A stretch of 64,000 nucleotides of DNA from a bacterium (lineage in GTDB: Bacteria; Margulisbacteria; WOR-1; O2-12-FULL-45-9; XYB2-FULL-48-7). The DNA is taken from positions 32,001-96,000 of the forward strand of contig JBDRLW010000003.1 of the NCBI GenBank assembly GCA_043812655.1, in the 5' to 3' direction. Each line of letters opens with the position of its first letter. Position 1 is the stretch's first letter. A model generated the notes under the pieces. That model was given only the letters and a program-made list of their open reading frames with translations, made no database searches and was not told where the DNA came from. The translations under genes and the position numbers were made by a program. This document shows positions 27,203-52,975 of this stretch, piece after piece.

Positions 27203-27604
27203 TGCCGCGGAGAGGAATTGAACCTCCATGGGTTTAACCCCGCTAGCTCCTGAAGTCCCGCTTCATTAATATTTTATCATAATGACTTGCGGGATCCCGA
27301 CGATTACATTATTATCATATCTTAATGACCGTCGGGACTAGTGCGCCCGCCTTCGGCGGGTAAATCTGCCAGATAATAAACTTGCTTCTTCAAATGCCCA
27401 GGAGAGGAATTGAACCTCCATGGGTTTAACCCCGCTAGCTCCTGAAGCTAGTGCGTCTGCCAGTTCCGCCACCTGGGCATTTGAAGGTGGAAATATTCTC
27501 TCATAAATTGACTGCTGATTCAAGATATTTTTCTGAAAAAAAAGGAGATAGTTCCGCTTTACCCGCCACAGGTGGGTTTACCCGCCGCAGGCGGGCATAG
27601 CGGC
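27203..27604 (-). pseudogene. Fragmented outer tRNA-Leu(CAG) copy enclosing the intact gene
   Basis: tRNA segments 27596-27604, 27551-27557, 27365-27372, 27338-27345 and 27203-27255 in correct order, separated by hairpin inserts. Confidence 0.75.
27395..27478 (-). tRNA. tRNA-Leu(CAG), CCA not encoded
   Basis: GCCCAGG/CCTGGGC acceptor stem, ctagc-ttCAGga-gctag anticodon arm, long variable arm, GGTTCAATTCC. Confidence 0.93.
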
Positions 27605-27610
27605 ATAAAA

Positions 27611-27695
27611 TGCCGCTGGCCGGAGTTGAACCGGCACGGGGGTTAACCCCACTTGATTTTGAGTCAAGCGCGTCTGCCAATTCCACCACAGCGGC
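27611..27695 (-). tRNA. tRNA-Leu(CAA), CCA not encoded
   Basis: GCCGCTG/CAGCGGC acceptor stem, cttga-ctCAAaa-tcaag, GGTTCAACTCC. Confidence 0.93.
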
Positions 27696-27760
27696 ATTTC
27701 GACTCCGTCTCGACTCACTGCGTTCGCTCGACGTCGCTCAATGCCGAGAGAAGCCGAGAC

Positions 27761-27815
27761 ATTCCACTTTACCCGCCTGCCTACCGGCAGGCAAGCCGTA
27801 GGCGGGCACAGCGGC
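27761..27815 (-). pseudogene. Extra 5' fragment of tRNA-Leu(CAA) interrupted by a CCCGCC-GGCGGGTAAA insert
   Basis: Minus strand gccgctgtg [39-nt insert 27768-27806] gtggaat matches the first 16 nt of tRNA-Leu(CAA). Confidence 0.7.
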
Positions 27816-27852
27816 ACGACAACTATGGTGAGTATAGCAAAATAATTAAAGC

Positions 27853-27882
27853 TTGACAATAAACTATCTTATAATGTATTAT
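27853..27882 (+). promoter_or_regulatory. Probable sigma70 promoter for rho
   Basis: TTGACA-18 nt-TATTAT. Confidence 0.45.
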
Positions 27883-27974
27883 AAAGATGTCCCAATAAAC
27901 GACCACATTTTACAATTTTTTCTTAATGACAACAAAATTAACAATTTCTCAATCAAACAAAAACAAGTTTATCT

Positions 27975-28040
27975 AACCTGCGACTAAAAGTCGCGGTTTC
28001 GTTTATCCAAATGGAACCGAGGCTTTCAGCCTCAGGTTCC
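27975..28040. repeat. GAACC-family REP doublet in the rho leader
   Basis: aacctgcgactaaaagtcgcggtttc ... atggaaccgaggctttcagcctcaggttcc. Confidence 0.8.
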
Positions 28041-28066
28041 AAAACAAATCACTCGAGGAGGAAGAA

Positions 28067-29311
28067 ATGGATATTGTAGAGTTAGAAGGTAAGACCCTGC
28101 CCCAATTATACGAGGTCGCCAAAGGTTTGAACATTGCCAACCTGCGGCAATTAAAAAAGCACGACCTGGTTTTTAAGATCCTCGAAGCCCAGACCGAAAA
28201 GAACGGCCACATTTTCACCAAAGGGATCCTAGAGATCCTGCCCGAAAATTATGGTTTCTTGCGGACCGGCGGCTATCTCCCCAGCCGGGAAGACGTTTAT
28301 GTTTCGCAAACCCAGATCCGCCGCTTTGATATGCAAAACGGTGATTTTGTCACCGGCCAGGTCCGGCCGCCTAAAGAGGGCGAAAAATATTATAGTTTGC
28401 TGAAGATCGAAGCGATCAACGGCGAAAATCCGGAAGGGGCGAGACAGCGCATACCATTTGACAGCTTAACACCAATTTTCCCCAACCGCCGCTTTGGTTT
28501 GGAATTTCCCGGTTGCCCCATGGCTTGCCGGTTGATTGACATGGTCGCGCCGATCGGCGCCGGCCAAAGAGCAATGATCGTCTCGCCGCCAAAGGCCGGT
28601 AAAACCACGGTCTTGAAAAATATCGCTAACTCGATCACTGAAAATTTCCCTGAAACCCTGATCAAAGTCTTACTGGTTGATGAACGGCCGGAAGAAGTGA
28701 CCGATATGCAAAGGTCAGTTAAAGGCGAAGTCGTTGCTTCAACTTTTGATGAGCCGCCGGAGGACCACATTAGGATCGCCGAATTATTACTGGAAGCTTG
28801 CAAACGCTTAGTTGAAGCAGGCAAAGATGTCGTAATCCTCCTTGATTCGATCACCCGCTTAGCTCGGGCTTACAATTTAGTTACCCCACCCTCCGGCCGG
28901 ACGCTGTCCGGCGGTCTTGACCCGACTTGTCTCCACCGGCCAAAGCGCTTCTTCGGCGGCGCGCGGAATATTGAAGAAGGCGGCAGTTTAACGATCATCG
29001 CTACTGCTCTAGTTGAAACCGGCTCCAGGATGGACGATATTATTTATGAAGAGTTCAAAGGAACAGGTAATATGGAACTCCACCTCAACCGTAAGCTGGC
29101 TGACCGGAGAATTTTCCCAGCGATCGACGTGCGGCTCTCCGGCACCAGGCGCGAAGAGCTCCTAATGGACGATAAGGAACTGAAAAAGATGTGGCTCTTG
29201 CGCAAAGTGATGGACAATTACGAGGCGGTTGAAGCGACCGAACAATTAATTGAACGGCTCAAAACCTTTAAGACTAATAAGCAGTTCTTTGATTCGGCTG
29301 ATGTAAAGTAA
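28067..29311 (+). CDS. rho: Transcription termination factor Rho
   Basis: [43 protein letters not shown]. Confidence 0.97.
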
Positions 29312-30173
29312 TTTGATTTAACTTTCCAAATTGAAACAATTCAACTTGCGAAGCAGGTTTTTCAGTACCATTTTCATCTTGTATAACAAATAATTGGCTT
29401 TCTGGATATGGCACTTTCCCCCAGGCGAATTGGAGCTTTTGGAAATAGGCAACTCCTTTATTTCTTAACAATTCCTTTTCTCCCCTTGATTTGAACGCAT
29501 TATTATTTAATAACCTATAAATAAAACTATAAGCATAAGCAGAGGCGAAAAATTCGGTCGTAAATTTAGACGTCTGTCTTCCAACTTGTTCGACAATTTT
29601 TAAATACCCAAGCTGACAAATTAATGCTACGGCTAAGTTGATCGCCTCAATTTTTTCAGTATTTTTAAAACTGCTGCGCAACAAGATAGCTTTGGTTGGT
29701 TTTCTCCTTTCACGGGAAGGATCAATCGCCCCATTCTTTTCCAGGCAATATTTAATGTTCTGTATTACCGTTCCGGAAATTGGCAGAAACCCTTGACGAT
29801 TCTCCATTGCTTCCCCCAAATAGGTTGAAAAACCAACGTAGCGGCAATAGGATTTCAAATCCATCCGATAAAACACTTCCGCCTTTTCAACAATATCTAA
29901 TATTTCTTTGGGCAAATTCCCTGCGCGTAAAATCAGGACGGTATCACCAATACTCTGTTCAGCAGGCCGCATAGCTTGCCTTAATTCAGAAAAACTCAAG
30001 CCGTGTTTCCTTTGCGCTGGGGAAAGCCTAACTATCCGAAAATCCAGTGTCCTTTCCACTAATGAAATGTCTCTTCCTTGCCCGGGCAGTCTCTCAATTT
30101 GAATTTGCGATGCTTGAACAGCCCCGTTTTTCCCCCAACGTATTCTACCTTTGCCGCTTATTCTTGTATTCAT
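29274..30173 (-). CDS. Hypothetical protein, AT-rich orphan, probably co-transcribed with the PtsI-like gene
   Basis: 299-aa ORF starting 1 nt after the upstream stop; no recognisable motif. Confidence 0.55.
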   Translation of the reverse strand: MNTRISGKGRIRWGKNGAVQASQIQIERLPGQGRDISLVERTLDFRIVRLSPAQRKHGLSFSELRQAMRPAEQSIGDTVLILRAGNLPKEILDIVEKAEVFYRMDLKSYCRYVGFSTYLGEAMENRQGFLPISGTVIQNIKYCLEKNGAIDPSRERRKPTKAILLRSSFKNTEKIEAINLAVALICQLGYLKIVEQVGRQTSKFTTEFFASAYAYSFIYRLLNNNAFKSRGEKELLRNKGVAYFQKLQFAWGKVPYPESQLFVIQDENGTEKPASQVELFQFGKLNQITLHQPNQRTAY

Positions 30174-30174
30174 A

Positions 30175-32484
30175 TTATTTTATTCCCTCGATCATGCTAA
30201 TGCTTTTGGCTTTTTTCCTTACGTTTAAATAACTCACCGGCCTTGGTGACTTAACTAATTCTCCAATAACGGTCCTGGTATCATAATGCTTGCTTTTTTG
30301 AGCTAAGCGAACTAATAACTTTCTAACTTCCATCGCATTTTTTTGATCCAATAAAGCTTCAATTAATGGCTTTTTTAATTTCCGCTCAAATTTTTTCCAT
30401 TCCCCATAATGAAAATATGATAACAAATACTTTATCTGGTTTTGCCAGGCAGGATTCATGCTCAACGAATCTATCCCCATTAAAGTTAATACTAACGCTC
30501 CTAATGGGTCTCTAGCCATTTCCCCGCAAAAACCAATTCTACCTTTATGCCTTTCTTGATATAACTTTGTTAATAACCCATGAGCTGCTAATTTTTCTTT
30601 TTCCGAAACTTTACTAGCCGATAAAAAGGCCGTAAAATCAGCTTCAGGCTCTTTCATGATTATATAAGCATCTCTAGTTACCTTTAACAAATATCCATGT
30701 TTCTGCAGCTCATTTTTCAGCGGTTCAGACCAGCTGGCAATTTCTTCCACCTTTATGGAACCCTTAACGCCTTTAATCGCCTCAAATATATACCCTAATA
30801 CTTTTGGTGACAGCCAATCATATTCCATTCCGGTCATTAGTTTTGCTCGATCATCAATCTCTAATACCGCGGCAGTTAGATCATTGCCCCCAATAGAAAA
30901 CACCTGGCATTTTTGGGCGATCGCTTCAATATTTTCTACTGCTTCTGGCGTCTCAACCATAGCGCCAAGCTGAATGAATTGGCTGACACGTCGCTGATCA
31001 ATAGTGTAATCGGTAATTAAATCAGTCTCATATTTTTTTACTAAATGTGCGACTTGCTCAACCTGTTCAGGGGTCCGGATCATTGGGATAATAACAGAAA
31101 CCTTTTTCCCTGCTAAACCATCTTCATCTGGATAATATTTCAGACGATCACAAGCAATCAATAGATCCCTGATCTGATCCCTTAAAATGGCTTTCCCTTT
31201 GTCAACTTGTAGCAAAAAATCAACCCCTCTTTTCCCTTGCGTAAAATCATCAAAAGTGCTTTCCGCTTTTGGATACTTATCCTTATCCACGTCAAAAAAG
31301 CGAAAAACAATATCTGTCGTTGCTTCAATAGCATTAATAAATTGTCTTATTAAAGACGGATTTGTTGGTCTCCCCAGCGTATAATGATCTTCCGTGCGAT
31401 AAAGACCAACTTCTTGAGTCTGCGCCCCCTCACTCCCCATATTTTCCATGATCTTTGGCAACGGTAAACGTTGATCATCTCCAGATAACCCTGTCCAGTG
31501 TGTGTCTGCATACTTCTTTGCTTGAGCCATCGCATCACCGATCTCTTTATTCATTAAACTAATATTGCGATCATCAACATTCACCACAACTTGTCCTGTA
31601 TGGGGGTTCATTATTACTTTTACTTCCGGATCTATGTGCGCAAATACTTTTTTGGCTTCTGACATCAAAACTACAGGAATCCCGCGATTAAATGCCAATA
31701 AATATGGATGGCTTGCCAAACCCATAAATTGATGGTCAAAAATAAAGCCTCTCGCCCCAAGATGAACATGAGATTGAATCTCTCCCCAAGCAAGATAATC
31801 AGCTACTAAATAATAACCTGTTTGCTGTATGGGACAATTAACGCCATCAATATGCGCCAATAATCGGGGCAAATACAACTCTGCGTCCTTGTATTGCTCC
31901 TGTTGCCGCATGTGTATTGGGACTTGGCTATTAAATATAATCCTTAACTCTTTTAACTTCCTATATATTGAAGCTCGATCATTAGGTTCTACCAGTTTTT
32001 TTTCTTGTAACAATCTTGATTTATCCACAACATCTCTTTCTGTCTTATTAAACAAATCAACTGAAACCTGAAGAAAAGCCTTAAAAGAAGCAACAAATTG
32101 CGGCCATACCGTTTCAAATGCTTGATGGGCAGAAATATTCTGCTGTTCAATCATCATTTTAGATTGTGTAGCCGCTTCTTTAATCACATAACCAAAGGCC
32201 TCATCTTTTTTATATGCTTCAACCAATGAATCTATTTTTTTAAGTTCATCCTCTTTTTTAATCGGCAGTAATTGATTATTCGTACCGCAAACAACCTGAT
32301 CGATCAATAGACAACTGGGTAAAACATAAGCTGGGTTTTTATCTAGAGGTATTTGTTTCTCTGGTGGAGGCAAAACTCCATTCCCTCGACCAGTAAAAGT
32401 CAAATTTTTTGTAAGTGGCCGGCGCTTTGAAAATGAATGGTTTTCTTTTCGTACTACTCCGTTTATTATCTTACTAAGGGTCAT
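30175..32484 (-). CDS. Divergent PEP-utilising enzyme (PTS enzyme I-like) with N-terminal extension
   Basis: GLASHPYLLAFNRGIPVV (phospho-His region), VGLYRTE, IIPMI, GAMVETP, SIGGNDLT, FCGEMARDP; AGGAG before MTLSK. Confidence 0.75.
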   Translation of the reverse strand: MTLSKIINGVVRKENHSFSKRRPLTKNLTFTGRGNGVLPPPEKQIPLDKNPAYVLPSCLLIDQVVCGTNNQLLPIKKEDELKKIDSLVEAYKKDEAFGYVIKEAATQSKMMIEQQNISAHQAFETVWPQFVASFKAFLQVSVDLFNKTERDVVDKSRLLQEKKLVEPNDRASIYRKLKELRIIFNSQVPIHMRQQEQYKDAELYLPRLLAHIDGVNCPIQQTGYYLVADYLAWGEIQSHVHLGARGFIFDHQFMGLASHPYLLAFNRGIPVVLMSEAKKVFAHIDPEVKVIMNPHTGQVVVNVDDRNISLMNKEIGDAMAQAKKYADTHWTGLSGDDQRLPLPKIMENMGSEGAQTQEVGLYRTEDHYTLGRPTNPSLIRQFINAIEATTDIVFRFFDVDKDKYPKAESTFDDFTQGKRGVDFLLQVDKGKAILRDQIRDLLIACDRLKYYPDEDGLAGKKVSVIIPMIRTPEQVEQVAHLVKKYETDLITDYTIDQRRVSQFIQLGAMVETPEAVENIEAIAQKCQVFSIGGNDLTAAVLEIDDRAKLMTGMEYDWLSPKVLGYIFEAIKGVKGSIKVEEIASWSEPLKNELQKHGYLLKVTRDAYIIMKEPEADFTAFLSASKVSEKEKLAAHGLLTKLYQERHKGRIGFCGEMARDPLGALVLTLMGIDSLSMNPAWQNQIKYLLSYFHYGEWKKFERKLKKPLIEALLDQKNAMEVRKLLVRLAQKSKHYDTRTVIGELVKSPRPVSYLNVRKKAKSISMIEGIK

Positions 32485-32524
32485 ATTAATACTCCTGATC
32501 ATTAAATAGCATTCAACCACATAT

Positions 32525-32551
32525 TTATCGCCTTATTATTCAATTAATTTC
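32525..32551 (-). promoter_or_regulatory. Sigma28/FliA-like promoter
   Basis: Minus strand GAAA-N15-GGCGATAA (canonical TAAA-N15-GCCGATAA). Confidence 0.55.
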
Positions 32552-32588
32552 ACTTCTTTTTGGCTTTCTAGCCTGTTATAATCAAGTT

Positions 32589-33830
32589 ATGTTTGGAATA
32601 AATGAAGTCGAGAGAGAAATAGGGTCAAGGGTCCAGGGTCCAAGGTCCAGAAGAATTAGCAGCATCTCCATCGATTCCCGCACTGTCCAACCCGGTGAAC
32701 TATTTATCCCGATCAAAGGGGAGAAATTTGATGGGAATAAGTTTATTAAAGACGCTCTAGCCAAAGGGGCTTTTGTCGTCGAAACAAAAGACGGGCTAAC
32801 CGCCCTGCACCAGCTCGCCGCTTACCACCGCAGTAAATTTGATCTTCCGGTCATCGCCATCACCGGCAGTGTGGGGAAAACGACGACCAAAGACATGCTT
32901 GCCTCGATCCTCTCCCAAGCGATGCCAACCTTAAAGAACGAACAGAACTATAATAATGAAATAGGCGTCCCCCTCACCCTCCTTAAGCTGACCAAAAAGC
33001 ATAAAGCCGCGGTAATTGAGATGGGCATGCAGGGAAAGGGAGAAATTGAGCTTTTGGCCAAGATCGCCAGGCCAACTATCGCCATTGTTACCAATATCGG
33101 CGAAGCCCACCTTGAACAACTGGGGACTAAAGCTAATATTGCCAAAGCTAAAGCCGAAGTCTTTAAATTCCTAAAAAAAGAAGATTGGGTGGTGATCAAC
33201 GCGGATGATGAATACTACGAACATTTAGTAGCCAGGGTCCAGGGTCCAGGGGCCAGGGTAAAAACCTTTGGTATTATTGAGAAGGCTGACATTAGAACAA
33301 AAGAATTGACGGGGATCAATCTGCCGCTGCCCGGCGAACACAACATTTATAACGCCCTGGCGGCGATCGCGGTGGCGAAAATCTTAAAAATTAAAAAGCC
33401 AGCCATTAAAAAAGGGCTGGAAACTTTTAAGCCTTCCAGCAAGCGGATGGAAGTGATCAACCGGCCAGACGGGACAAAGATCATTAACGATACCTATAAC
33501 GCTAATCCCCAATCAATGGCGGCAACCCTAAAAGTCTTAGCCGGTATTGAGCGGCCAAATGTAAAAAGGATCGCAGTCTTGGGAAGTATGCTGGAACTTG
33601 GCAAACGCTCCAAAGCCGCTCATGCCAAGATAATTAAACTGGCCAAACAATTAAAGATCGACAAAGTCTTAACTTTTGGCGAATTCTGGCCAAGCCTGGC
33701 TCCAGCGGAAAAAACCAAAAAGAACTTAATAAAAAAATTACGGCAATTAATAGCGCCTCGTGATATAATTTTAATCAAGGGCTCCCGGGGAATGAGGATG
33801 GAAGACGTGGTCGACGCGATCAGAACTTAA
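32589..33830 (+). CDS. murF: UDP-N-acetylmuramoyl-tripeptide--D-Ala-D-Ala ligase
   Basis: IDSRTV, AITGSVGKTTTK, NNEIGVPLTL, NDTYNANP, KGSRGM. Confidence 0.93.
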   Translation: MFGINEVEREIGSRVQGPRSRRISSISIDSRTVQPGELFIPIKGEKFDGNKFIKDALAKGAFVVETKDGLTALHQLAAYHRSKFDLPVIAITGSVGKTTTKDMLASILSQAMPTLKNEQNYNNEIGVPLTLLKLTKKHKAAVIEMGMQGKGEIELLAKIARPTIAIVTNIGEAHLEQLGTKANIAKAKAEVFKFLKKEDWVVINADDEYYEHLVARVQGPGARVKTFGIIEKADIRTKELTGINLPLPGEHNIYNALAAIAVAKILKIKKPAIKKGLETFKPSSKRMEVINRPDGTKIINDTYNANPQSMAATLKVLAGIERPNVKRIAVLGSMLELGKRSKAAHAKIIKLAKQLKIDKVLTFGEFWPSLAPAEKTKKNLIKKLRQLIAPRDIILIKGSRGMRMEDVVDAIRT

Positions 33831-33833
33831 CGT

Positions 33834-34137
33834 GCCGCGGTGGCCCGCCTACGGCTTGCCTGCCGGTAGGCAGGCGGGTAAATGGAACTGGCTGGCACTT
33901 ACATCCCGAAGTTGAATGCAATTTTTTGCCGAGGTGGTGGAACTGGCAGACACACCAGCTTGAGGGGCTGGCGCCGTTAAAAGCGTAGGAGTTCAAATCT
34001 CCTCCTCGGCATAAAAATTGCTTTCAAATTCAGAGATGGAGGTTCTCCCGACGGACATTATAATAGAATAATGATGAAATCGTCGGGATCCCGATTTCCG
34101 CCAAAGGCGGAACATCGGGAAAGTCCTCTCCGCGGCA
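33834..34137 (+). pseudogene. Outer tRNA-Leu shell (5' and 3' ends) interrupted by hairpins and enclosing tRNA-Leu(GAG)
   Basis: gccgcggtgg[insert]tggaactggc ... ggaggttc[two hairpins]aagtcctctccgcggca; perfect GCCGCGG/CCGCGGC acceptor stem. Confidence 0.75.
33928..34011 (+). tRNA. tRNA-Leu(GAG), CCA not encoded
   Basis: GCCGAGG/CCTCGGC acceptor stem, ccagc-ttGAGgg-gctgg, GTTCAAATC. Confidence 0.93.
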
Positions 34138-34140
34138 TTA

Positions 34141-34788
34141 TTAATTTGCCTTTTTTCTTAATCCCGAAACTGTTGTAAAACTATACCCCTTTTTCTTTAG
34201 ATCTTTGATCATTATTGGCAGGGCCTCGACTATTTGCCGGCTATTATCATGCATCAACACTACCGAGCCATTCCGCACCAGGGAAGTAACCCTTTTGGCG
34301 ATCGAAGCCGCCGTTCGCATCCCCTTTTTTGGCTGGTAGAAATCGTCAGCGTTCGCGTTCCATAACACGATCTCATAGCCCGCTTTTTCGATCAGCTTTC
34401 TTTTAGAATATGGTAATCGCCCGTGCGGCGGGCGGAAAAGAACAACCTTTTTATTAGTAGCCTTCATGATCAAAAGGGAAGTCTCTCTAATCTCTGCCAG
34501 CGTTTTCTTATCATCCATCTGGTCCAAGGACGTATGGCTGTAGGTGTGGTTCCCGATCTCGTGCCCGTCCGCGCTTGCCTGGCTGACAAACTGCGGATTA
34601 TCCTTAACTTTCCAGCCGATCACAAAAAAGGTCACCGGGACATTTTCCTTTTTCAGTATAGGCAAGAGCTTATCGATGACGCCAGGCGTTGGCCCATCGT
34701 CAAAAGTTAAAGCAACCTGCTTTTTCGCGCTCGCGGAAAAAGCTAAACATAATGCCAAGATCAAGATAATGGATATTTTTCTTACCAT
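34141..34788 (-). CDS. Polysaccharide deacetylase (NodB/CE4), exported
   Basis: Signal peptide, LTFDDGP, GNHTYSH, FRPPHG, VLMHD. Confidence 0.92.
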   Translation of the reverse strand: MVRKISIILILALCLAFSASAKKQVALTFDDGPTPGVIDKLLPILKKENVPVTFFVIGWKVKDNPQFVSQASADGHEIGNHTYSHTSLDQMDDKKTLAEIRETSLLIMKATNKKVVLFRPPHGRLPYSKRKLIEKAGYEIVLWNANADDFYQPKKGMRTAASIAKRVTSLVRNGSVVLMHDNSRQIVEALPIMIKDLKKKGYSFTTVSGLRKKAN

Positions 34789-34931
34789 ATAATAAAACCA
34801 GTTTTCATTATAGCACTATAATAAAATAAACATTGATCCCTCATTACTCATTACTCATCCCTCCCTTGCTTCTATAAAAAGTATTCGGTATAATCAAAAC
34901 AATTGTTAAATCGATCGGTGGTAAATTAAAT

Positions 34932-42562: not shown

Positions 42563-42566
42563 ATAA

Positions 42567-43304
42567 ATGGAGGAGCATTTGACTTTTAAGCTCGCGCAAA
42601 TTGATGCCACCTTCCCTCGCCTGCAACCGGATAATAGTACGCAAACCAACTCGAACCAATCATTCGACGAGAAATTAAAATTCGCCCAAGCCCGGCTGGG
42701 CGGGATCTTTGGCCAATTCGGTCCTTTTTTTTCTTATCCGCCGAATTTATACTTTTCTTTTGAACAACCAGAAAGTGACTATAAAACTTACGAGATCCCG
42801 GAACAATATAAGGCCCAGACGGAAAAAAACAATGATGCGGCTAAAGATATCAGTACCAGGAACGATCATACTCCCCATATTTTTGAATCTTTGCCGACAC
42901 AAACCATCAGCAAACAAACGCTTCAACAGCTGTTAACCCAAACCGGTTGGCTGGTGCCAAATATGGAAGCCTCACCTAGCATGTTCCAAGCCTTCCTTGA
43001 CGGGAAATTAGCCCCTAAGCTTGATATGCAATCGCTGATCGACCAAATAGCCGAACAAGTTAAAATGGTCAAAGGGAAAGGAAAAACAGAATTATCGATG
43101 ACGCTTAAACCGGCCGAGCTGGGAGACATCTTATTAACATTGACATCTAACGCCGGCGCGGTTTCGATCCAGATCCAGGCAACCCAAGAAACAAAGAAAT
43201 TAATCGACGCTAAAAAAGAAGAGCTTGAACGGGCGCTAAAAAGCGCTAAAATAGAGCTGGCCCAATTAAAGATCATGGAGGTGAAGCCGTATGTCGATGT
43301 TTGA
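42567..43304 (+). CDS. fliK: FliK-like hook-length control protein (short)
   Basis: C-terminal ELSMTLKPAELGDILLTL...IQIQA...EELERAL; position before a hook/rod gene. Confidence 0.7.
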   Translation: MEEHLTFKLAQIDATFPRLQPDNSTQTNSNQSFDEKLKFAQARLGGIFGQFGPFFSYPPNLYFSFEQPESDYKTYEIPEQYKAQTEKNNDAAKDISTRNDHTPHIFESLPTQTISKQTLQQLLTQTGWLVPNMEASPSMFQAFLDGKLAPKLDMQSLIDQIAEQVKMVKGKGKTELSMTLKPAELGDILLTLTSNAGAVSIQIQATQETKKLIDAKKEELERALKSAKIELAQLKIMEVKPYVDV

Positions 43305-44112: not shown

Positions 44113-44121
44113 GCTATATAA

Positions 44122-45342: not shown

Positions 45343-45632
45343 TGGAAGTGCAAAATGTTAAATTTCCCGACCTGCCGGAAGGTGAAAAGGGAGAAAAGAT
45401 GGAGGCCAGGGCGCTGGGTGACGTCCCGGTAATGGTCACTGTCGAACTGGGCGGCGCCCAATTATCGCTCAAAGAGATCCTTGATTTTTCCGAAGGGTCT
45501 ATTGTTGAGCTCAATCGCTTGGCTGGAGAACCGCTCGACCTGAAGGTCGGCGGCCAGGTGGTGGCACAGGGAGAAGTTGTGGCGGTTGACGATTATTATG
45601 GTTTGCGGATCACTAACGTGGTGATGAAGTGA
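45342..45632 (+). CDS. fliN: Flagellar switch protein FliN
   Basis: DVPVMVTVELG, GSIVELNRLAGEPLD, GEVVAVDDYYGLRI. Confidence 0.92.
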   Translation: MEVQNVKFPDLPEGEKGEKMEARALGDVPVMVTVELGGAQLSLKEILDFSEGSIVELNRLAGEPLDLKVGGQVVAQGEVVAVDDYYGLRITNVVMK

Positions 45633-45919
45633 CGACAGAGACCCTGGTGCTACAATCGTCCCCGATCATTACGACCGGCTATATTATGCAAGTGTTTCTT
45701 TCCCTTTTGATCGTCGTGGCCCTGATCTACGTCGGCGCCAAGTATCTTTTGCCCAAGTTCAAGGTTGACAGCCGAAGTAAGCTGATCAAGATCGTCGACC
45801 GCGTCTACCTGGAGCCGCAAGTTAGCGCTTACATATTAAAGGTCGGCAAAAAAGCCTGGCTCTTGGCGGTTAGCAATAAACAGATCACCAAAATTGACCA
45901 GGTCGAAGAGGAGTTTTAA
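45629..45919 (+). CDS. fliO: FliO-like protein
   Basis: One TM plus IKIVDRVYL...ILKVG; lies between fliN and fliP. Confidence 0.75.
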   Translation: MTTETLVLQSSPIITTGYIMQVFLSLLIVVALIYVGAKYLLPKFKVDSRSKLIKIVDRVYLEPQVSAYILKVGKKAWLLAVSNKQITKIDQVEEEF

Positions 45920-46584
45920 TGGCACCGCTTGATTTTAACCAGCTCCTCGCTTCGCCCCAATTTTCTAACAGCATCAATGTGATCCTCTCGCTCGCTATGA
46001 TCTCGCTGATCCCTTTCTTTTTGGTCTCTGTCACTTCATTCTTGCGGATCATTATTGTTTTCTCGCTTTTGCGGACAGCGATCGGCACCCAGCAAGTCCC
46101 GCCCAGCTCTGTTCTGCTTGGGCTAGCGCTTTTCATGACGGTTTTTATCATGTCGCCGGTCTGGCAGGAGATCAACACTAACGCAGTTATCCCTTACAAC
46201 ACTAAAAAGATCTCGCAGGCCAAAGCCTTTGAAGTCGGCTCAAAACCACTGATGCAATTCATGCTCAAACAGACCAGGGAAAAAGATCTAGCGCTTTTTG
46301 TCCAGTTCTCCAAGATCCCGCCGCCCAAAACCGCCGACCAAGTCCCGTTCTATGTTCTAGTCCCGTCCTTTATGATCTCGGAGCTTAAAACCGCTTTCCA
46401 GATCGGCTTTTTGCTCTTTATCCCATTTGTTATTATTGACCTGGTCGTCGCTAATATTTTACTGTCACTCGGCATGTTCATGTTGTCGCCAGTCATGGTC
46501 TCCCTTCCTTTCAAGATCCTTTTATTTGTCCTGGTCGACGGTTGGAATTTGATCACCCGCGGCCTGCTGATGAGTTTTAAATGA
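45919..46584 (+). CDS. fliP: Export gate protein FliP
   Basis: TSFLRIIIVFSLLR, ISELKTAFQIGF, SLPFKILLFVLVDGW. Confidence 0.95.
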   Translation: MAPLDFNQLLASPQFSNSINVILSLAMISLIPFFLVSVTSFLRIIIVFSLLRTAIGTQQVPPSSVLLGLALFMTVFIMSPVWQEINTNAVIPYNTKKISQAKAFEVGSKPLMQFMLKQTREKDLALFVQFSKIPPPKTADQVPFYVLVPSFMISELKTAFQIGFLLFIPFVIIDLVVANILLSLGMFMLSPVMVSLPFKILLFVLVDGWNLITRGLLMSFK

Positions 46585-46850
46585 ACCAAGATTTTGCCGT
46601 AAATGTTTTGTATCAGGCCATTTATCTGACGCTCCTTATTTCCGCTCCAGCCGTCGGCATTGGCCTCTTGGTCGGTTTTATTATCAGCCTCTTCCAGGCG
46701 GTTACCCAGATCCAAGAGCAAACGCTAACCTTTGTCCCTAAAGTGATCTCGGTTTTATTAATGATCGCTTTTACTTCGCCTTGGATCTTTTCCATGATCG
46801 TTGATTTTACCAACACCCTCTGGAGCGCTATTCCTAACATGGCCAAATGA
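46581..46850 (+). CDS. fliQ: Export gate protein FliQ
   Basis: ISLFQAVTQIQEQTLTFVPK. Confidence 0.95.
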   Translation: MNQDFAVNVLYQAIYLTLLISAPAVGIGLLVGFIISLFQAVTQIQEQTLTFVPKVISVLLMIAFTSPWIFSMIVDFTNTLWSAIPNMAK

Positions 46851-47620
46851 TCATCTCGAGCATCCAGCTAACGGCTGGACTTTTGATCCTAGCCCGGATC
46901 GCCGGCGTTTTTATCCAAGCCCCATTGTTTAGTTCCAGAAGCTTCCCCATGCAAGCCAAAACGGCTTTCGCAATTTGGCTGGCTGCCCTGCTCTGGTTCG
47001 TTACTCCTATTTCGCCAGGATTGCCAACTGATTTTTTTTCATTCGTTATCGCTTTAACGTTTGAAGTTATTATCGGCTACTTGATCGGTTTTGTCTGTTA
47101 TATCATTTTTATCGCCCTGCAATCAGGCGGCGAAATTATCGACCTGCAAATGGGGTTATCCGTCGCGTCGGCCCTTGACCCGGTCTTTGGCGCGGTCATT
47201 TCGGTCATTGGCCGCTTGATCTTTTTTGTCACACTGCTTATTTTTATTACTTTAGACGGGCACCACCTGCTCCTTTCCGCTTTTCATCAAAGCTTCACAC
47301 TTATTCCAGCCGGGAAGATCCCTAACCTTATGTCTTACGACTTATTTAACCAGCTGATGGGCCTCGGAACAATGCTCTGGTTAACCGCGATCAAGATCGC
47401 CGCCCCCATTATCCTTTTAATATTTTTGGCCGATTTTACGTTTGGCATCGTTTCGCGCGTCGCTCCTCAAGTTAATGTCTTCATGTTAGGTTTCCAGATC
47501 AAGCCGATCTTGGGTCTTTTTGCTATTTCCCTCCTTAGCCCCTTTCTGTTAAGATACGTAGAGAAATTAATTGAAGTGATGGGGTCAGAAGTCCTCAAAC
47601 TTCTAACCATTATCAAATAG
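46847..47620 (+). CDS. fliR: Export gate protein FliR
   Basis: GEIIDLQMGL, LDGHH, SRVAPQVNVF. Confidence 0.93.
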   Translation: MIISSIQLTAGLLILARIAGVFIQAPLFSSRSFPMQAKTAFAIWLAALLWFVTPISPGLPTDFFSFVIALTFEVIIGYLIGFVCYIIFIALQSGGEIIDLQMGLSVASALDPVFGAVISVIGRLIFFVTLLIFITLDGHHLLLSAFHQSFTLIPAGKIPNLMSYDLFNQLMGLGTMLWLTAIKIAAPIILLIFLADFTFGIVSRVAPQVNVFMLGFQIKPILGLFAISLLSPFLLRYVEKLIEVMGSEVLKLLTIIK

Positions 47621-47632
47621 AAGGAGAGAAAA

Positions 47633-48733
47633 ATGGCCGAAGGCGGCGATAAATCAGAAGAACCAACGCCCCACCGCCTGCGCGAAGCCCGGGAAAAGGG
47701 CCAGGTCGCCAAAAGCAAGGAAATTACGACTGCTTTTCTGCTTCTTCTTTCCTATTTTATTTTCCGCTATTTAGGCGAATTTATGTGGCGCAACCTAGTG
47801 GAAATGGCCCAAGGAATATTCCAGCTTATTCCACAGGCTAAAGAGTTCAACCTTTCTTTTGCCGGTTATGTTATGCTGATCGGCCTGCGGGCCATGGCGT
47901 TTGTCCTCCTCCCTATTTTAGGGTCGGTTTTTCTCATCGGTTTTTTAGCGGAGGCGCTGCAAACCGGTTTGGTCTTTGCCGCTGATCCCCTAAGCCCAAA
48001 AATAGAAAGGATCAACCCGCTCGAAGGGTTTAAGCGGATGTTTTCAATCCAAGGGTTTGTTGAGCTTTTAAAATCTCTTTTAAAGATCATCATTGTTTTC
48101 TATATCTCTTGGTACGCTTGTAAAGATGACCTCCCTTACATTATTGTTTTGATCGAAGCCCATCCTTGGGACGCGCTCGTCTTGGGCGGTGACATTGCCT
48201 ACCGGATCGCGATCAGGGTCGGCATGTTCTATATTGCCATCGCCATCCTGGATTATTTTTACAAACGCTGGGAATACATGCGTAATCTCAAGATGACCAA
48301 ACAGGAAGTGAAGGAAGAATATAAGCGGCTGGAAGGAGACCCAATGGTCAAGCAAAGGATGCGCGACCTCCAGCGCCAGGTAGCCCAACAGCGGATGATG
48401 TCGGCTGTGCCCAAAGCGGACGTGGTCGTCACCAACCCCACCCATTTGGCGATCGCCTTAAAATACGACGTCGCAAAAATGAAAGCGCCGGTCGTTTTAG
48501 CCAAGGGGGAAAGAAAGATCGCGGAAGAAATCCGGCGCATTGCCGAAGCCCATGAAATAAGCATTGTCAGGAATGAAGTTCTAGCCCGGTCAATTTATAA
48601 AACGACCAGAGTTAACCAAGAAGTTCCCGCCGATCTTTACCAGGCGATCGCTGAAGTCCTAGCGTACGTTTACAAGATTAAAAGAGACAGGGAAGCCAGG
48701 AAAAAAGCGTCTATTGCCCTGGCTCCCAGGTAG
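47633..48733 (+). CDS. flhB: Export switch protein FlhB
   Basis: KSEEPTPHRLREAREKGQVAKS, EGDP, NPTH autocleavage motif. Confidence 0.95.
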   Translation: MAEGGDKSEEPTPHRLREAREKGQVAKSKEITTAFLLLLSYFIFRYLGEFMWRNLVEMAQGIFQLIPQAKEFNLSFAGYVMLIGLRAMAFVLLPILGSVFLIGFLAEALQTGLVFAADPLSPKIERINPLEGFKRMFSIQGFVELLKSLLKIIIVFYISWYACKDDLPYIIVLIEAHPWDALVLGGDIAYRIAIRVGMFYIAIAILDYFYKRWEYMRNLKMTKQEVKEEYKRLEGDPMVKQRMRDLQRQVAQQRMMSAVPKADVVVTNPTHLAIALKYDVAKMKAPVVLAKGERKIAEEIRRIAEAHEISIVRNEVLARSIYKTTRVNQEVPADLYQAIAEVLAYVYKIKRDREARKKASIALAPR

Positions 48734-48753
48734 GTATATAATCGAGGGAAATC

Positions 48754-50841
48754 ATGGCAGCACCTGGACTTGACCTAAGGGATATCCGCAAACTTTTCTC
48801 GACCGGCGATTTCATGGTTGCCGGCGTTCTTGTTGTCATTATCGCTTTGATGCTGGTTCCCCTTCCCCCTTTCTTCCTGGATATTTTACTCACGATGAAC
48901 ATTGCTTTTTCACTTGTCATATTACTAGTGGCAATGTATCTAAAAGAGCCGCTGGAATTCGCCTCCTTCCCCTCGATCCTCTTGATAGTTACGGTCTTGC
49001 GCTTGGCCCTTAACATCGCGGCTTCCCGGCTCATCCTTTCTAATGCTTATGCCGGCCAAGTGGTCGAGGCTTTCGGTAATTTCGTCGTCGGCGGAAATTA
49101 TATCGTTGGCACGATCATTTTTATCATCATTACGATCGTTAATTTCGTTGTCATCACCAAAGGTTCGGAGCGGGTAGCCGAAGTTGCCGCCCGGTTCACC
49201 TTGGACGCGATGCCCGGCAAACAAATGTCGATCGATGCCGATCTCAACGCCGGACTGATCGACGCGACCGAAGCCCGGGGAAGACGGCGGAAGATAGAAC
49301 AAGAGGCAACTTTCTTTGGCAGTATGGACGGTGCCAATAAATTTGTCCGTGGAGACTCTATTGCCGGCATCATTATCGTCATAGTAAATATTTTGGGTGG
49401 TGTCCTGGTCGGCTGGCTTCAGCTAGGGATGGCTCCGCTGGAAGCCCTCTCAATCTATGCCCTGTTGACCATTGGCGCCGGGCTGATCGCCCAGGTTACC
49501 GCCCTGCTTATCTCGATCGGCACCGGTTTAGTCATTACCAAATCTGCCTCGGAGCTTAGCCTTGGCAACGACGTCTCCAAACAACTTTTTGCCCAGCCAA
49601 GAGCTTTCGCTTTCGTCTGTCTGATCCTTGGCATCTTTGCGATGATCCCGGGATTGCCAACTGTCCCCTTTTTAATAATGGCGTCAGCTTCCGGCGCCTT
49701 AGCGCTTGTCTTACTGCGCGCCCAATCGGCGTCAGAAGAAGCAAAGGTCGTGACCGAAGAGGTCTCCGCCAAAGATGTCCTGAAAAAACCGGAAAGCATC
49801 CTTGGCACGCTCGGGCTTGATCCGCTCTCCCTAAAAGCGGGGCGTAATTTGATCCCGCTGATCGACCCTGGCCAAAAAGGCCCGCTGCTTGAGCGGATCA
49901 CTTTGATCCGTTACAACATCGGCCAGGAGCTTGGGTTTGTCATCCCCGGAGTCCGGGTCATGGATGACCTGAGCCTGCCGCCGCAGCAGTATACCGTTGA
50001 GATCCGAGGGACCAAAGTCTCGAACGGTGAAGCTTATGTCGGCAGCCATCTAATTGATATGTCGCTCGCCCAAGCCAAGGCCAAAAAACTTTCTGGCATT
50101 GAAGCCAAGGACCCATTATCAAATGACCTGGTCACTTGGGTGCCGGATGATCTTCTTCCCCAACTGCAAAAGCTGGGGATCACCGCTAAGCCACCAGTTG
50201 ATGTCATCTCCGACCATTTCTCGGAGATCGTAAAGCGTTACGCCGACGAAATAATGACGAGGCAAAATGTCCAGTCGCTCATTGAATTAGTTAAAAATAA
50301 TAATGCCGCGATCGTCCGCGAGCTTATCCCCGACCTCTTATCTCTCGGCCAAGTGCATAAAGTCTTGCAGCTCTTGGTCAGGGAGCGCGTTTCTATCCGC
50401 GACCTGTCAACGATCCTTGAACGTTTAGCTGATTATGCCCATCTTTCAAGAGATATTAATATTTTGGCCGAATACGTCAGGCAATCGCTGGCAAGGCAAA
50501 TATGCGAAGCTTACACGGATAAGAAAGGGGTTATTACGGTCGTCACCATCGATCCGGGCTTGGAAGAAACCTTGATCGGTTCGATCCACCAATCAGAGTA
50601 TGGTTCTTTCTTGGCGGTCGATCCCAATGTCGGCGAAAAGATATTGGTCCAAATTTCCGGCCACATCCAAAACTTTAAACGCTTAAAACTTAAGCCGGTC
50701 ATCCTTTGCTCCCCAAGATTACGGCCGCACTTTAAACGCTTTATAGAAAGAAGCTATCCTGACCTGGCCGTCCTTTCTTATAATGAAATTGTCCCGCAAG
50801 TCAAAGTCCAATCGATCGGCATGATCGGGGTCGAGTCATAA
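48754..50841 (+). CDS. flhA: Export apparatus protein FlhA
   Basis: RVAEVAARFTLDAMPGKQMSIDADL, GSMDGANKFVRGD, VLSYNEI. Confidence 0.95.
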   Translation: MAAPGLDLRDIRKLFSTGDFMVAGVLVVIIALMLVPLPPFFLDILLTMNIAFSLVILLVAMYLKEPLEFASFPSILLIVTVLRLALNIAASRLILSNAYAGQVVEAFGNFVVGGNYIVGTIIFIIITIVNFVVITKGSERVAEVAARFTLDAMPGKQMSIDADLNAGLIDATEARGRRRKIEQEATFFGSMDGANKFVRGDSIAGIIIVIVNILGGVLVGWLQLGMAPLEALSIYALLTIGAGLIAQVTALLISIGTGLVITKSASELSLGNDVSKQLFAQPRAFAFVCLILGIFAMIPGLPTVPFLIMASASGALALVLLRAQSASEEAKVVTEEVSAKDVLKKPESILGTLGLDPLSLKAGRNLIPLIDPGQKGPLLERITLIRYNIGQELGFVIPGVRVMDDLSLPPQQYTVEIRGTKVSNGEAYVGSHLIDMSLAQAKAKKLSGIEAKDPLSNDLVTWVPDDLLPQLQKLGITAKPPVDVISDHFSEIVKRYADEIMTRQNVQSLIELVKNNNAAIVRELIPDLLSLGQVHKVLQLLVRERVSIRDLSTILERLADYAHLSRDINILAEYVRQSLARQICEAYTDKKGVITVVTIDPGLEETLIGSIHQSEYGSFLAVDPNVGEKILVQISGHIQNFKRLKLKPVILCSPRLRPHFKRFIERSYPDLAVLSYNEIVPQVKVQSIGMIGVES

Positions 50842-50844
50842 ATG

Positions 50845-50873
50845 TTTACAATTCCCCCCGCCTTTGCTACAAT
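50845..50873 (+). promoter_or_regulatory. Sigma70 promoter for the small ORF plus sigma gene
   Basis: TTTACA-17 nt-TACAAT with extended TG. Confidence 0.6.
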
Positions 50874-50882
50874 ATCAAGGCC

Positions 50883-51092
50883 TTGACAATACGACGGATA
50901 GACCAATCAAAATCAAAAGAGTTACGGAAGATCGGCCGCGCCGGCATAGAAGATGCCCCGCCAGCCGGTATCTCTCCAGTTTTACGGGCTTCCTGGCGCT
51001 TTGCCAGGGACACAGCCGAAAGATTTAATAAGGAACTGCTAAACGACCGGACAAAAGAATTCCTTAAAAGTTTAGCTAGAAAGTTCTCATGA
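50883..51092 (+). CDS. Small basic hypothetical protein coupled to the sigma gene
   Basis: 69 aa, TTG start after the promoter, ATGA overlap with the sigma gene. Confidence 0.5.
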   Translation: MTIRRIDQSKSKELRKIGRAGIEDAPPAGISPVLRASWRFARDTAERFNKELLNDRTKEFLKSLARKFS

Positions 51093-51679
51093 CCACGCGC
51101 CGTGAAGTTGAAGACCGCATAGTCTCCCTTATCCGCGAACAATTCCTAAAGCATAGCGATGAAACGCTTGAAAAATATAAGAACCAGATCAATGCTACCG
51201 TTAGATGGTATGTCTCCACCCTGCCCCGCCATATCGCTTCTTCGGAGGCGCATGACCTGGAATCGGAAGCCAAGATCGCGTTCGTCGAATGTTTAAAGAC
51301 CTGGGACCCGCGGAAAGGCAATTTGTGGACGTATGTCTCGGTCCGCCTCAAAGGCTCGATGCAGGATTACCTCCGCAAGCGCGGCGGCGACCCGGTGGCC
51401 GGCCTGTACGAATTCGTCGCTTCGGCCGCCAATGTCTACATGGCTTTTAACAAGAAGAATATTGTCCATGAAGAAGTCGATAAGCTCTCAAACCTGGATT
51501 CGGTCATGAAAGACTTTTCAAACAAAGAAAAAACCGTGCTGGAAAATTATTATCAGAATGACAAGACCTTTAAAGAGATAGGCAAAGAGATCGGCCTTTC
51601 CGAATCGCAAGTTTCGCGCATTTGCAAAGAAGCCACTCTCAAATTGAAAAAAGGTTTAAAAGCCGAAGACGAAGAATAA
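51089..51679 (+). CDS. FliA/WhiG-like sigma factor, short (regions 2 and 4)
   Basis: WDPRKGNLWTYVSVRLKGSMQDYLRK (region 2); TFKEIGKEIGLSESQVSRI (region 4). Confidence 0.8.
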   Translation: MTTRREVEDRIVSLIREQFLKHSDETLEKYKNQINATVRWYVSTLPRHIASSEAHDLESEAKIAFVECLKTWDPRKGNLWTYVSVRLKGSMQDYLRKRGGDPVAGLYEFVASAANVYMAFNKKNIVHEEVDKLSNLDSVMKDFSNKEKTVLENYYQNDKTFKEIGKEIGLSESQVSRICKEATLKLKKGLKAEDEE

Positions 51680-51708
51680 TTGGGGCCCCCAGGATCAGAG
51701 GCCCCAAT
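51679..51708. terminator. Hairpin between convergent genes
   Basis: attggggcc...ggccccaat. Confidence 0.45.
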
Positions 51709-51725
51709 CGCTAGTCACTCCCCAG

Positions 51726-51950
51726 TTATTTCACGCAATGAGTTTTACTTTTGTGACAATTTTTTGGACAACCGCAATCACGGCATTTTTTAGCAGGATC
51801 GCATTTGGTTTTGTCACAAGTTTGGCAGAGCTTCACTGGACAATTGCCGGCCTGGCATTTGGCAAGAACTGGTTCTTTTACCGCGGCCAGAGCAACGCTT
51901 CCGCCTAAGATCAAAGCCAAGAGAAGTGAAGACAATATCGTTTTTTTCAT
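51726..51950 (-). CDS. Small secreted Cys-rich protein
   Basis: Signal peptide, 10 Cys in the mature part, AGGAGG RBS. Confidence 0.7.
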   Translation of the reverse strand: MKKTILSSLLLALILGGSVALAAVKEPVLAKCQAGNCPVKLCQTCDKTKCDPAKKCRDCGCPKNCHKSKTHCVK

Positions 51951-52000
51951 AAGAGACCTCCTAAATTTTATTTGATCAGGATCAGTACAAATGGCTGGTC

Positions 52001-52312
52001 TTAAGCTAAAGGCGGGCCATTGGGAGGGTGCAAGATCTTATTTTGCACCGAAGAATAGAGAGGAGCTATTTCTCTGACTTTAAAAAGAGCCGAAATTTTT
52101 AAGATCGGCATGGCTTTATTCGAAGCGGCAAGGCTAGTTAAATGCAGCGTTGGCGTTTCAAATTGGCTATCGGCTACTTTATCTTGCGCCGACTCCATCG
52201 AGCATTGGTTGGTTTCATGATGGCAACAATTACAATGGGTTTGCGTATAACAGACCGGCTGGCTAATTAAAAAAAACGGCAAAAGATAGGCAAGGCACAT
52301 CTTTTTAAGCAT
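52001..52312 (-). CDS. Small Cys/His-rich hypothetical protein
   Basis: HCNCCHH motif and C-terminal HPPNGPP. Confidence 0.5.
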   Translation of the reverse strand: MLKKMCLAYLLPFFLISQPVCYTQTHCNCCHHETNQCSMESAQDKVADSQFETPTLHLTSLAASNKAMPILKISALFKVREIAPLYSSVQNKILHPPNGPPLA

Positions 52313-52431
52313 GTTATAAGTGTAGGCATTAAAACTGATAAAAGCAAGGGTTTACAGACAAATCTTGAGTTGTTTAATGATGATCAATGTTGTCGCTGCC
52401 AATCTTTTAGTGTAAAATGATGACTTATCAT

Positions 52432-52504
52432 GCGGGAGTAGCTCAGCTGGTAGAGCTTCTGCTTCCCAAGCAGACGGTCGCGGGTTCGAACCCCGTCTCC
52501 CGCT
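52432..52504 (+). tRNA. tRNA-Gly(CCC)
   Basis: GCGGGAG/CTCCCGC, tctgc-ttCCCaa-gcaga, GGTTCGAACCC. Confidence 0.94.
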
Positions 52505-52512
52505 TTTTTATT

Positions 52513-52583
52513 GGCGGCATGGCCGAGTGGTTAGGCAGCGGTCTGCAAAACCGTTTACTCCAGTTCAAATCTGGATGCCGCCT
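52513..52583 (+). tRNA. tRNA-Cys(GCA)
   Basis: GGCGGCA/TGCCGCC, gcggt-ctGCAaa-accgt, GTTCAAATC. Confidence 0.94.
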
Positions 52584-52606
52584 TGTGTTATAATTATTGT
52601 ATTGAT

Positions 52607-52975
52607 GCGCGCTTAGTCCCGACGATTCGACTTGCGTCGAATGTCGGGATCCCGATTTCCGCTGTAAGCGGAACATCGGGACTCAGCTGGTTAGAGTACT
52701 TGTCCCGATGGTCATTAGAATAGATAGTAATGGAATCATCGGGATCCCGAGGCTGAAGCTACCATTATTGCGCGCGCGCTTAGCTCAGCTGGTTAGAGTA
52801 CTTGCTTGACAGGCAAGGGGTCACAGGTTCGAAACCTGTAGCGCGCAATAATGGATTAGTTTACTCGGGACTTGACAGGTGCCTTGACTTAGCTCGGCAC
52901 AGGCAAGGGGTCACAGGTTCGCCTGCCCCGAGCGAGGAACGAAGTGACGAGTCGAGGGGAAACCTGTAGCGCGCA
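52607..52975 (+). pseudogene. Outer tRNA-Val(GAC) split into five segments by four inserts, one carrying the intact gene
   Basis: Segments 52607-16, 52682-702, 52871-79, 52904-21 and 52960-75 concatenate to a sequence identical to 52774-52847. Confidence 0.9.
52774..52847 (+). tRNA. tRNA-Val(GAC), CCA not encoded
   Basis: GCGCGCT/AGCGCGC, cttgc-ttGACag-gcaag, GGTTCGAAACC. Confidence 0.94.

Follow-up and report, generated by a model that had tools for sequence, protein, structure and literature searches.

Hairpin pairs within the window

Three loci in a 64,000-nucleotide stretch of a Margulisbacteria (WOR-1) genome – GenBank assembly GCA_043812655.1, contig JBDRLW010000003.1, positions 32,001 to 96,000; the whole of this stretch is referred to below as the window – contain wrecked tRNA genes that are split by pairs of short TCCCG...CGGGA hairpins. 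The element defined by these pairs is built from two imperfect hairpins, usually mirror images of one another, which abut at CGGGA|TCCCG. Our preferred explanation, which we credit and doubt in about equal measure, is that the pairs represent double-hairpin insertion elements associated with tRNA-replacement cassettes, with small GIY-YIG nucleases as their likeliest mobilisers. The features of the three loci, together with a transposase gene that bears on the argument, are as follows.

27209..27255, minus strand: dead tRNA-Leu(CAG)-like shell, 3' part from position 33 onwards; 100% match to tRNA-Leu(CAG) 33-79
27256..27337, no strand: hairpin pair 1 (27256-27294 and 27295-27337), at 30/31 of the Leu shell; flanks contiguous in tRNA-Leu(CAG)
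27338..27372, minus strand: Leu shell pieces 27338-27345 and 27365-27372, with a second-family hairpin between
27346-27364: second-family hairpin, CCCGCC-N4-GGCGGGTAAA, splitting the Leu shell
27394..27479, minus strand: intact tRNA-Leu(CAG), lying with its flanks between the 5' and 3' shell pieces
27550..27604, minus strand: what remains of the Leu shell's 5' part (27550-27557 and 27596-27604), assigned by eye
27558-27576 and 27577-27595: two second-family hairpins splitting the Leu 5' remnant
33927-34012: intact tRNA-Leu(GAG), upstream of the fragment that holds pair 2
34033..34045, plus strand: 5' T-arm piece of a tRNA-Leu-like 3' fragment, downstream of tRNA-Leu(GAG)
34046..34120, no strand: hairpin pair 2 (34046-34088 and 34089-34120), in the T loop at 56/57
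34121..34137, plus strand: remaining T arm and acceptor 3' strand of the dead Leu-like fragment
52607..52616, plus strand: dead tRNA-Val(GAC) shell, positions 1-10
52617..52681, no strand: hairpin pair 3 (52617-52649 and 52650-52681), at 10/11 of the Val shell
52682..52702, plus strand: Val shell, positions 11-31; 100% identity
52703..52870, no strand: hairpin pair 4, at 30/31 of the Val shell, comprising a short hairpin (52703-52744) and a cargo hairpin (52745-52870)
52871..52975, plus strand: remaining Val shell (52871-52879, 52900-52921 and 52960-52975)
52880-52899: 20-nucleotide insert in the Val shell, with a CAGG repeat on its flanks
52922-52959: 38-nucleotide GC-rich hairpin insert in the T loop of the Val shell
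55982..56362, plus strand: IS200/IS605-type Y1 transposase gene tnpA (NF033573, 86 bits); not part of the element

An initial annotation of the window had described eight TCCCG...CGGGA units forming four back-to-back pairs joined by the palindrome CGGGATCCCG, and both coordinates and folds agree with that description. The palindrome occurs four times in the window (at 27290, 34084, 52645 and 52740) against an expectation of 0.04, a number reached in none of 100 shuffles, while the pattern TCCCG-N15-45-CGGGA yields eight matches against 1.75 expected: seven are the short units of the initial annotation and the eighth, at 26010-26054, is partnerless and unrelated. As DNA, every one of the eight units folds into a hairpin (z from -3.3 to -7.6). 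Unit 52745-52870 is a hairpin around an intact tRNA-Val(GAC) at 52774-52847, so that one loop is indeed a whole tRNA. The accompanying view that stems are conserved and loops variable holds only mildly, mean identity being 0.65 and 0.63 for the two arms and 0.51 for the loops. The hairpin copies in the window encode no enzyme of their own, and a scan of the window against Rfam returned only six tRNAs at gathering score.

At each of the four pairs the flanks are continuous when set against the intact paralogue, with neither duplication nor deletion at the borders. An intact tRNA lies beside or nested within every wrecked copy in the window, and at both Leu loci the acceptor strand of the shell – at the first of them that of 27209..27255 – is unlike that of the adjoining intact tRNA. 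The suggestion that one sub-type always lies in the tRNA sense breaks down beyond the window, where the same sub-type is antisense to tRNA-Arg (contig C9:50908); since the pairs are usually dyad-symmetric, their orientation in any case says little.

Distribution across the source genome

The source genome (G000; other G numbers denote related genomes) is a 1.62-Mb assembly of 46 contigs with one transfer-messenger RNA (tmRNA) and 45 tRNAs. CGGGATCCCG is found at 19 sites, ten of them joints of hairpin pairs, and all ten pairs lie inside tRNA fragments that belong to seven loci, namely Leu-CAG, Leu-GAG, Val, Met, Arg, Pro-GGG and Pro-CGG. None of the ten is in ordinary intergenic DNA, and each interrupts tRNA-derived sequence without duplication or loss. 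A tRNA 5' fragment also contains one unpaired hairpin. The pattern TCCCGA..TCGGGA has 22 matches, 18 of which fall within 310 nucleotides of a tRNA gene, a zone that by simple arithmetic covers at most about 2% of the genome.

Two further loci are instructive. At the Met locus, on another contig, a short hairpin and a hairpin enclosing an intact tRNA-Met are inserted in a dead tRNA-Met, which also bears a pair in its T loop. At the Arg locus the order is full tRNA, a 27-nucleotide trailer, a pair, a fragment starting at position 41, the same trailer, a second pair and a fragment starting at position 57, an arrangement that reads as two serial insertions. An identical hairpin sub-type can be found between unrelated flanks, with exact borders. 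No public sequencing run contained over 0.14 of the words sampled from window positions 52300-53200.

Occurrence and targets in related genomes

The pair pattern is present in 25 of 41 related genomes; a reversed control pattern is present in none of the 41. We examined 76 distinct pairs in loci fetched from these relatives, of which 55 have a tRNA or tmRNA context and 21 lie elsewhere. Removal of the pair leaves continuous tRNA-like sequence across the joint in 49 of the 76, and at none of these 49 readable joints is there a target duplication. With flanks that rejoin cleanly, both here and in relatives, the initial picture of a dispersed family that inserts precisely and without target duplication is upheld. 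Specificity for tRNA genes has only partial support: the 10 of 10 pairs in the source genome speak for tRNA specificity, while the pairs found elsewhere in relatives weaken it.

The targets of 84 pairs fall into the classes RYTY|RA (T-loop-like; 37 pairs), AG|CT (16) and N|AAAT (12), with 19 unclassed, and most of the non-tRNA sites belong to the N|AAAT class. As targets the element favours short motifs of the kind usual in tRNA T loops (GTTC|RAAT) and in D loops (AG|CT). Together with the non-tRNA sites, the target classes point to a sequence preference that tRNA loops happen to satisfy, the tRNA itself not being strictly needed. In two relatives' loci (L025 and L034) pairs split a duplicated tmRNA 3' end at a T-loop-like site, beside an intact tmRNA end.

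Hairpin sub-types are common to several genera, and pairs in split tRNA genes also occur in records titled Omnitrophota, Buchananbacteria and Patescibacteria; the wider scan of contigs for the pattern gave mostly chance matches in GC-rich genomes, and only its AT-richer loci are informative. A phage vector was considered and rejected: a scan of viral contigs for the pair pattern produced two matches, neither of them near a tRNA (by ARAGORN) nor family-like by eye.

Empty and occupied alleles, and tRNA as cargo

A Gly-Cys-Val cluster was compared across 14 genomes. Downstream of tRNA-Gly and tRNA-Cys, nine of the 14 have a plain tRNA-Val; in the other five the gene is split at 30/31 by a hairpin followed by a unit of the form TCCCG-arm-tRNA-Val-arm'-CGGGA. 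The occupied alleles are those of G000, G006, G016 (truncated), G019 (5' shell lost) and G020, and this Val cassette, which is nuclease-free, is the only place where both empty and occupied alleles were shown. In G020 the shell is the common family allele and the inner tRNA-Val differs from it at several acceptor- and T-stem positions, with pairing kept; in G019 shell and inner copy have different T stems. An unchanged shell alongside an inner copy with several paired changes is more easily explained by import than by change in place. At the position of the 52880-52899 insert G006 carries a similar insert, which suggests that the two occupied Val alleles, in G000 and G006, share ancestry.

We found seven cases of a tRNA within a hairpin: Val in four genomes, Met in two, and Ala in one Patescibacteria record. 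The arms around the inner tRNA vary in sequence between genomes and keep their complementarity (the pairing of leader and trailer was judged on folded cases only, and ARAGORN ends are uncertain by one base). In all seven the CGGGA|TCCCG joint is unbroken and the cargo lies within the second hairpin. That the cargo is variable – short loops in some units, a whole tRNA in others – is therefore as first proposed. Extra pairs in the dead Val shell differ by lineage (G000 has one at 10/11, G020 one at 56/57, and G016 a remnant at 10/11), which indicates that pairs keep arriving after the gene has died.

Two further observations concern cargo and alleles. At a tRNA-Pro(GGG) locus of G012 (L067, 372-1286), where there is also an inverted copy of the shell, a 304-residue DUF5677 open reading frame (ORF) lies in a stretch that opens with a hairpin-type end and whose closing arm we did not trace. 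In G009 and G011 (L203 and L205) the "empty" tRNA-Val genes have a complementary leader and trailer of 5-7 nucleotides, and could be old cassettes whose shells are gone.

Candidate enzymes

The initial annotation looked to HUH Y1 transposases for mobilisation. The source genome has three Y1_Tnp genes, one of which, the tnpA at 55982-56362, is 3 kb from the Val locus. It encodes a 126-residue protein of IS200/IS605 type and has its own end palindromes; by eye, it lies between pyrK-like and pyrD-like genes. No TCCCG...CGGGA unit flanks this gene, the hairpins there being unrelated. Y1_Tnp was found in 17 of the 25 pair-bearing genomes and not in the remaining eight, some of them incomplete (G012, G002, G017, G020, G006, G007, G029 and G033); the carriers without it include G012, with nine pairs in an assembly 91% complete and in five contigs, as well as G002 (six pairs), G017 (four) and G020 (three). 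In 51 typed pairs the arrangement (A,A') occurs 11 times and (A',A) never. Unrelated tnpA hairpins, carriers that lack Y1_Tnp, mirror symmetry and cargo placed inside hairpin 2 all speak against mobilisation by an HUH Y1 enzyme. Of the earlier proposal, a non-autonomous element is in keeping with copies that have no enzyme of their own; the HUH enzyme as its mobiliser is not supported.

A different candidate is provided by small GIY-YIG nucleases. All six small GIY-YIG ORFs of the source genome are within 117 nucleotides of a tRNA gene, and at four of them (Arg, Tyr, Pro-GGG and Ser) there is a duplicated tRNA fragment split by hairpins. The ORFs are 80-99 residues long and consist of the catalytic domain only, PF01541 being their sole significant Pfam domain; some have weak, overlapping matches to the related families T5orf172 and MUG113, and no named NCBIfam family matched them. 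The nearest solved structures are the UPF0213 proteins BH0048 and EF2693, followed by the structure-specific nuclease SLX1. The arrangement in relatives is regular: first a 5' tRNA piece whose D loop holds a pair, next the GIY-YIG gene, then an intact tRNA and in some cases a 3' piece with a T-loop pair.

The small GIY-YIG proteins form two clades with a 100/97 branch between them. Nine clade-2 genes have a pair within about 160 nucleotides, two of them on both sides, and these nine are all the pair-adjacent nuclease genes, clade 1 contributing none; seven of the nine loci had been fetched for their pairs. Clade-2 genes of the source genome include C9:51087-51347 and C29:846-1088. At loci found via the nuclease alone, a pair is nearby in 3 of 11 for clade 2 as against 0 of 25 for clade 1. 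Copies next to a nuclease gene, which the initial annotation proposed to look for, therefore exist: pairs flank clade-2 GIY-YIG genes within split tRNA genes of relatives. Because the same pairs flank their genes inside tRNA genes, GIY-YIG nucleases are the likelier mobilisers, a role that we infer from anatomy and precedent.

Clade 1 is the better conserved of the two (in the source genome C13:19661-19903 and C44:56199-56414; in relatives L036-L064). At 11 of 25 loci its genes have tRNA-Gln or tRNA-Asn as a neighbour, and none has TCCCG pairs.

Other hairpin families in dead tRNA pieces

Two more families of small hairpins are found in these wrecks. A second family, TTTACCCGCC-N4-GGCGGG, lies inside dead Leu and Ser shells (window 27346-27364 and 27558-27595; C1:8884 elsewhere in the source genome); pattern search gives five copies, three of them no more than 32 nucleotides from a tRNA gene. 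A third, GC-rich family, of ACTTCGACTCGG...GAGTCGAGG type, splits the T loop of the Val shell at 52922-52959. Members of this family elsewhere in the source genome lie between tRNA-Glu and a duplicate of its last 17 bases (C30:106811-106904) and between tRNA-Gln and a GIY-YIG gene (C44:56415-56530).

The nature of the element and how it may move

The anatomy of the pairs, their precise insertion, their presence/absence polymorphism and their physical linkage to nuclease genes are matters of observation. What they may amount to is a family of small double-hairpin elements that, across the lineage, insert precisely and without target duplication, every copy in this genome sitting in the wreck of a resident tRNA gene with a working copy of the same tRNA beside it or nested within. 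Since the Val and Met elements carry a working tRNA between the arms of hairpin 2, the element would both break the host gene and supply its replacement. The copies in the window would be non-autonomous, mobilised by stand-alone GIY-YIG nucleases of 80-90 residues that belong to one clade.

Precedent for such an enzyme comes from Ssn: these single-domain GIY-YIG enzymes are described as cutting single-stranded DNA beside hairpin repeats that flank their own genes (Chenal et al. 2025, PMC11893778), and the authors liken the layout of gene plus repeat to an insertion sequence. By analogy, the nuclease would recognise hairpins where the DNA is single-stranded and nick it next to them, after which repair dependent on recombination would copy the cassette and duplicate parts of the tRNA. 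The part played by the nuclease and the copying mechanism are both things that we infer.

A number of findings weigh against this explanation. Clade 2 was found in 22 of the 25 pair-bearing genomes and also in 14 of 16 genomes without pairs, so that its co-occurrence with pairs does not discriminate. Among the matches listed, there is a pair close to only some 9 of roughly 68 clade-2 genes, a proximity that a shared liking for tRNA loci might produce by itself. No GIY-YIG gene lies at the three window loci, the nearest being on other contigs. GIY-YIG nucleases are not known to join DNA, and insertion would thus depend on repair by the host. The inner tRNA-Val of G000 and of G006 is identical to its shell, as local duplication or gene conversion would explain no less well than import, and the 21 relatives' pairs at non-tRNA sites are there without a cassette. 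Finally, the SRM consensus published for Ssn has four matches in the source genome and none in the eight short pairs.

Alternative explanations

Several of these points would be expected if the hairpins were an independent family akin to miniature inverted-repeat transposable elements (MITEs), with its own target motif and a mobiliser unrelated to GIY-YIG, that gathers in dead tRNA fragments – where motifs are kept and insertions tolerated – the tRNA duplications being a separate matter. We think this unlikely, though deserving of real weight. It would account for the relatives' pairs at non-tRNA sites, many of them with |AAAT, for extra pairs in the same dead Val shell that differ by lineage, for nuclease co-occurrence that is uninformative and for one hairpin sub-type beside unrelated flanks. 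It sits poorly, however, with the Val and Met loci, where the pair carries the replacement tRNA and is itself the inserted unit relative to empty alleles, with pairs that at several loci lie a few tens of bases or less from a GIY-YIG ORF, to one side of it or to both, and in one clade only, and with the complete absence of the ten source-genome pairs from ordinary intergenic DNA. A non-autonomous IS200/IS605-like element, related to palindrome-associated transposable elements (PATEs) or repetitive extragenic palindromes (REPs) and moved as single-stranded DNA by an HUH Y1 enzyme in trans, would likewise insert precisely and without target duplication, with two imperfect hairpins and a short target motif, and Y1_Tnp genes are indeed at hand, one of them close to the Val locus; yet the unrelated ends of the window tnpA, the eight carriers in which Y1_Tnp was not found, the dyad symmetry, with (A,A') but never (A',A), and cargo held inside hairpin 2 with the CGGGA|TCCCG joint intact make it very improbable.

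Two other accounts dispense with mobility. The hairpins might be immobile by-products of repair: where a nuclease had broken a tRNA gene, template switching would have copied them in, with the 10-base palindrome joining them. Many partner combinations around one invariant joint would fit this, and nuclease-dependent amplification at tRNA loci is reported to occur with SegB (PMC13096335); but with the same sub-type between unrelated flanks with exact borders, sub-types common to several genera, and pairs at non-tRNA sites, we regard it as very improbable too. The least credible account, to which we give hardly any weight, is that the hairpins are RNA-level introns or processing elements in functional interrupted tRNA genes. 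Positions 30/31, 56/57 and the D loop do recall non-canonical archaeal intron sites. The splicing endonuclease PF01974, however, has no match in this 93% complete genome, with the control search positive in four archaea; the shells lack essential parts, the one at Leu-CAG being broken up, the Pro(CGG) copy missing its first five bases and the fragment beside Leu(GAG) consisting of a T arm only; and at five of the seven loci, those of Val, Met, Arg, Pro-GGG and Pro-CGG, the same tRNA is also present intact, next to the shell or within it. Among expected tRNA species ARAGORN misses only tRNA-Ile(GAT) and tRNA-Ala(TGC). Archaeal-type (bulge-helix-bulge) tRNA introns were rejected on the first three of these grounds. 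Scars of integrase attachment sites, for which one would expect a duplicated tRNA 3' end at the distant edge of an island with an integrase, were also rejected: here there are 5' as well as 3' duplicates, and nothing but hairpins or a GIY-YIG ORF fills the tens of bases that separate them from the intact gene.

To return to hairpin-bounded cassettes moved by minimal stand-alone GIY-YIG nucleases able to read DNA hairpins, it is possible, and we put it forward tentatively, that they constitute a distinct class of mobile element, one that destroys the resident tRNA gene, imposes dependence on its own copy and spreads between lineages and phyla, this Margulisbacteria lineage, Omnitrophota and Patescibacteria included. 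In literature on GIY-YIG and homing endonucleases with tRNA genes, on the Candidate Phyla Radiation and on partial duplications we found no published description of such cassettes; supplements could hold cases. Split tRNA genes with a nested spare may pass in routine annotation for assembly noise, introns or integrase scars, and those described here have a regular and repeatable anatomy. If the explanation is true, selfish DNA lives in essential tRNA genes and keeps its host alive by supplying a substitute, a solution other than that of introns or inteins; small GIY-YIG proteins, which are very common, would gain a biological role, and there would be a pointer to new hairpin-specific DNA nucleases with defined sites.

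Comparison with known systems

Classical MITEs likewise have inverted ends, and differ in that no target duplication accompanies the pairs at the 49 of 49 joints readable against a tRNA. With IS200/IS605 elements, PATEs and the system of REPs and REP-associated tyrosine transposases (RAYTs) the pairs have in common hairpin ends, a lack of target duplication and a short target motif. IS200/IS605 elements have two like-oriented subterminal hairpins with the cargo between them, whereas the pairs described here are mirror-symmetric, with cargo inside hairpin 2, and the local tnpA has other hairpins.

Paquin et al. reportedly described, in 2000, small mobile double-hairpin elements in fungal mitochondria, where free-standing endonuclease ORFs are also said to insert into a gene while carrying a duplicate of the displaced end. 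Those elements differ from ours in being organellar, in having protein and rRNA genes as targets, and in their unrelated sequences.

The likeness to Ssn is closer. In both cases there is a tiny single-domain GIY-YIG protein (94 residues in Neisseria, 80-90 here), and the gene is flanked on one or both sides by hairpin repeats of 20-50 nucleotides – the NTS/SRM repeats in the case of Ssn – that are also dispersed in the genome. The differences are that most clade-2 genes here have no flanking pair and that the hairpins are abutted mirror-image pairs inside tRNA genes, some of them with a tRNA; in a term search, the main text of PMC11893778 showed no mention of tRNA.

SegB is larger than the small GIY-YIG ORFs and has a DNA-binding part; it is a phage enzyme, and the ORFs here, of 80-99 residues, are catalytic domain only. 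Hairpin pairs, a split resident gene and a hairpin-borne tRNA are not known for SegB. In phages T4 and T6 SegB is a free-standing GIY-YIG homing endonuclease within a cluster of tRNA genes (PMC2330249), and its nuclease activity is reported to drive recombination-dependent tandem amplification of the segment that holds the tRNAs and segB (PMC13096335). It is here that the parallel with the cassettes is found: a GIY-YIG gene among tRNA genes, the activity of which leads, or in the cassettes would lead, to duplication of a tRNA-containing segment.

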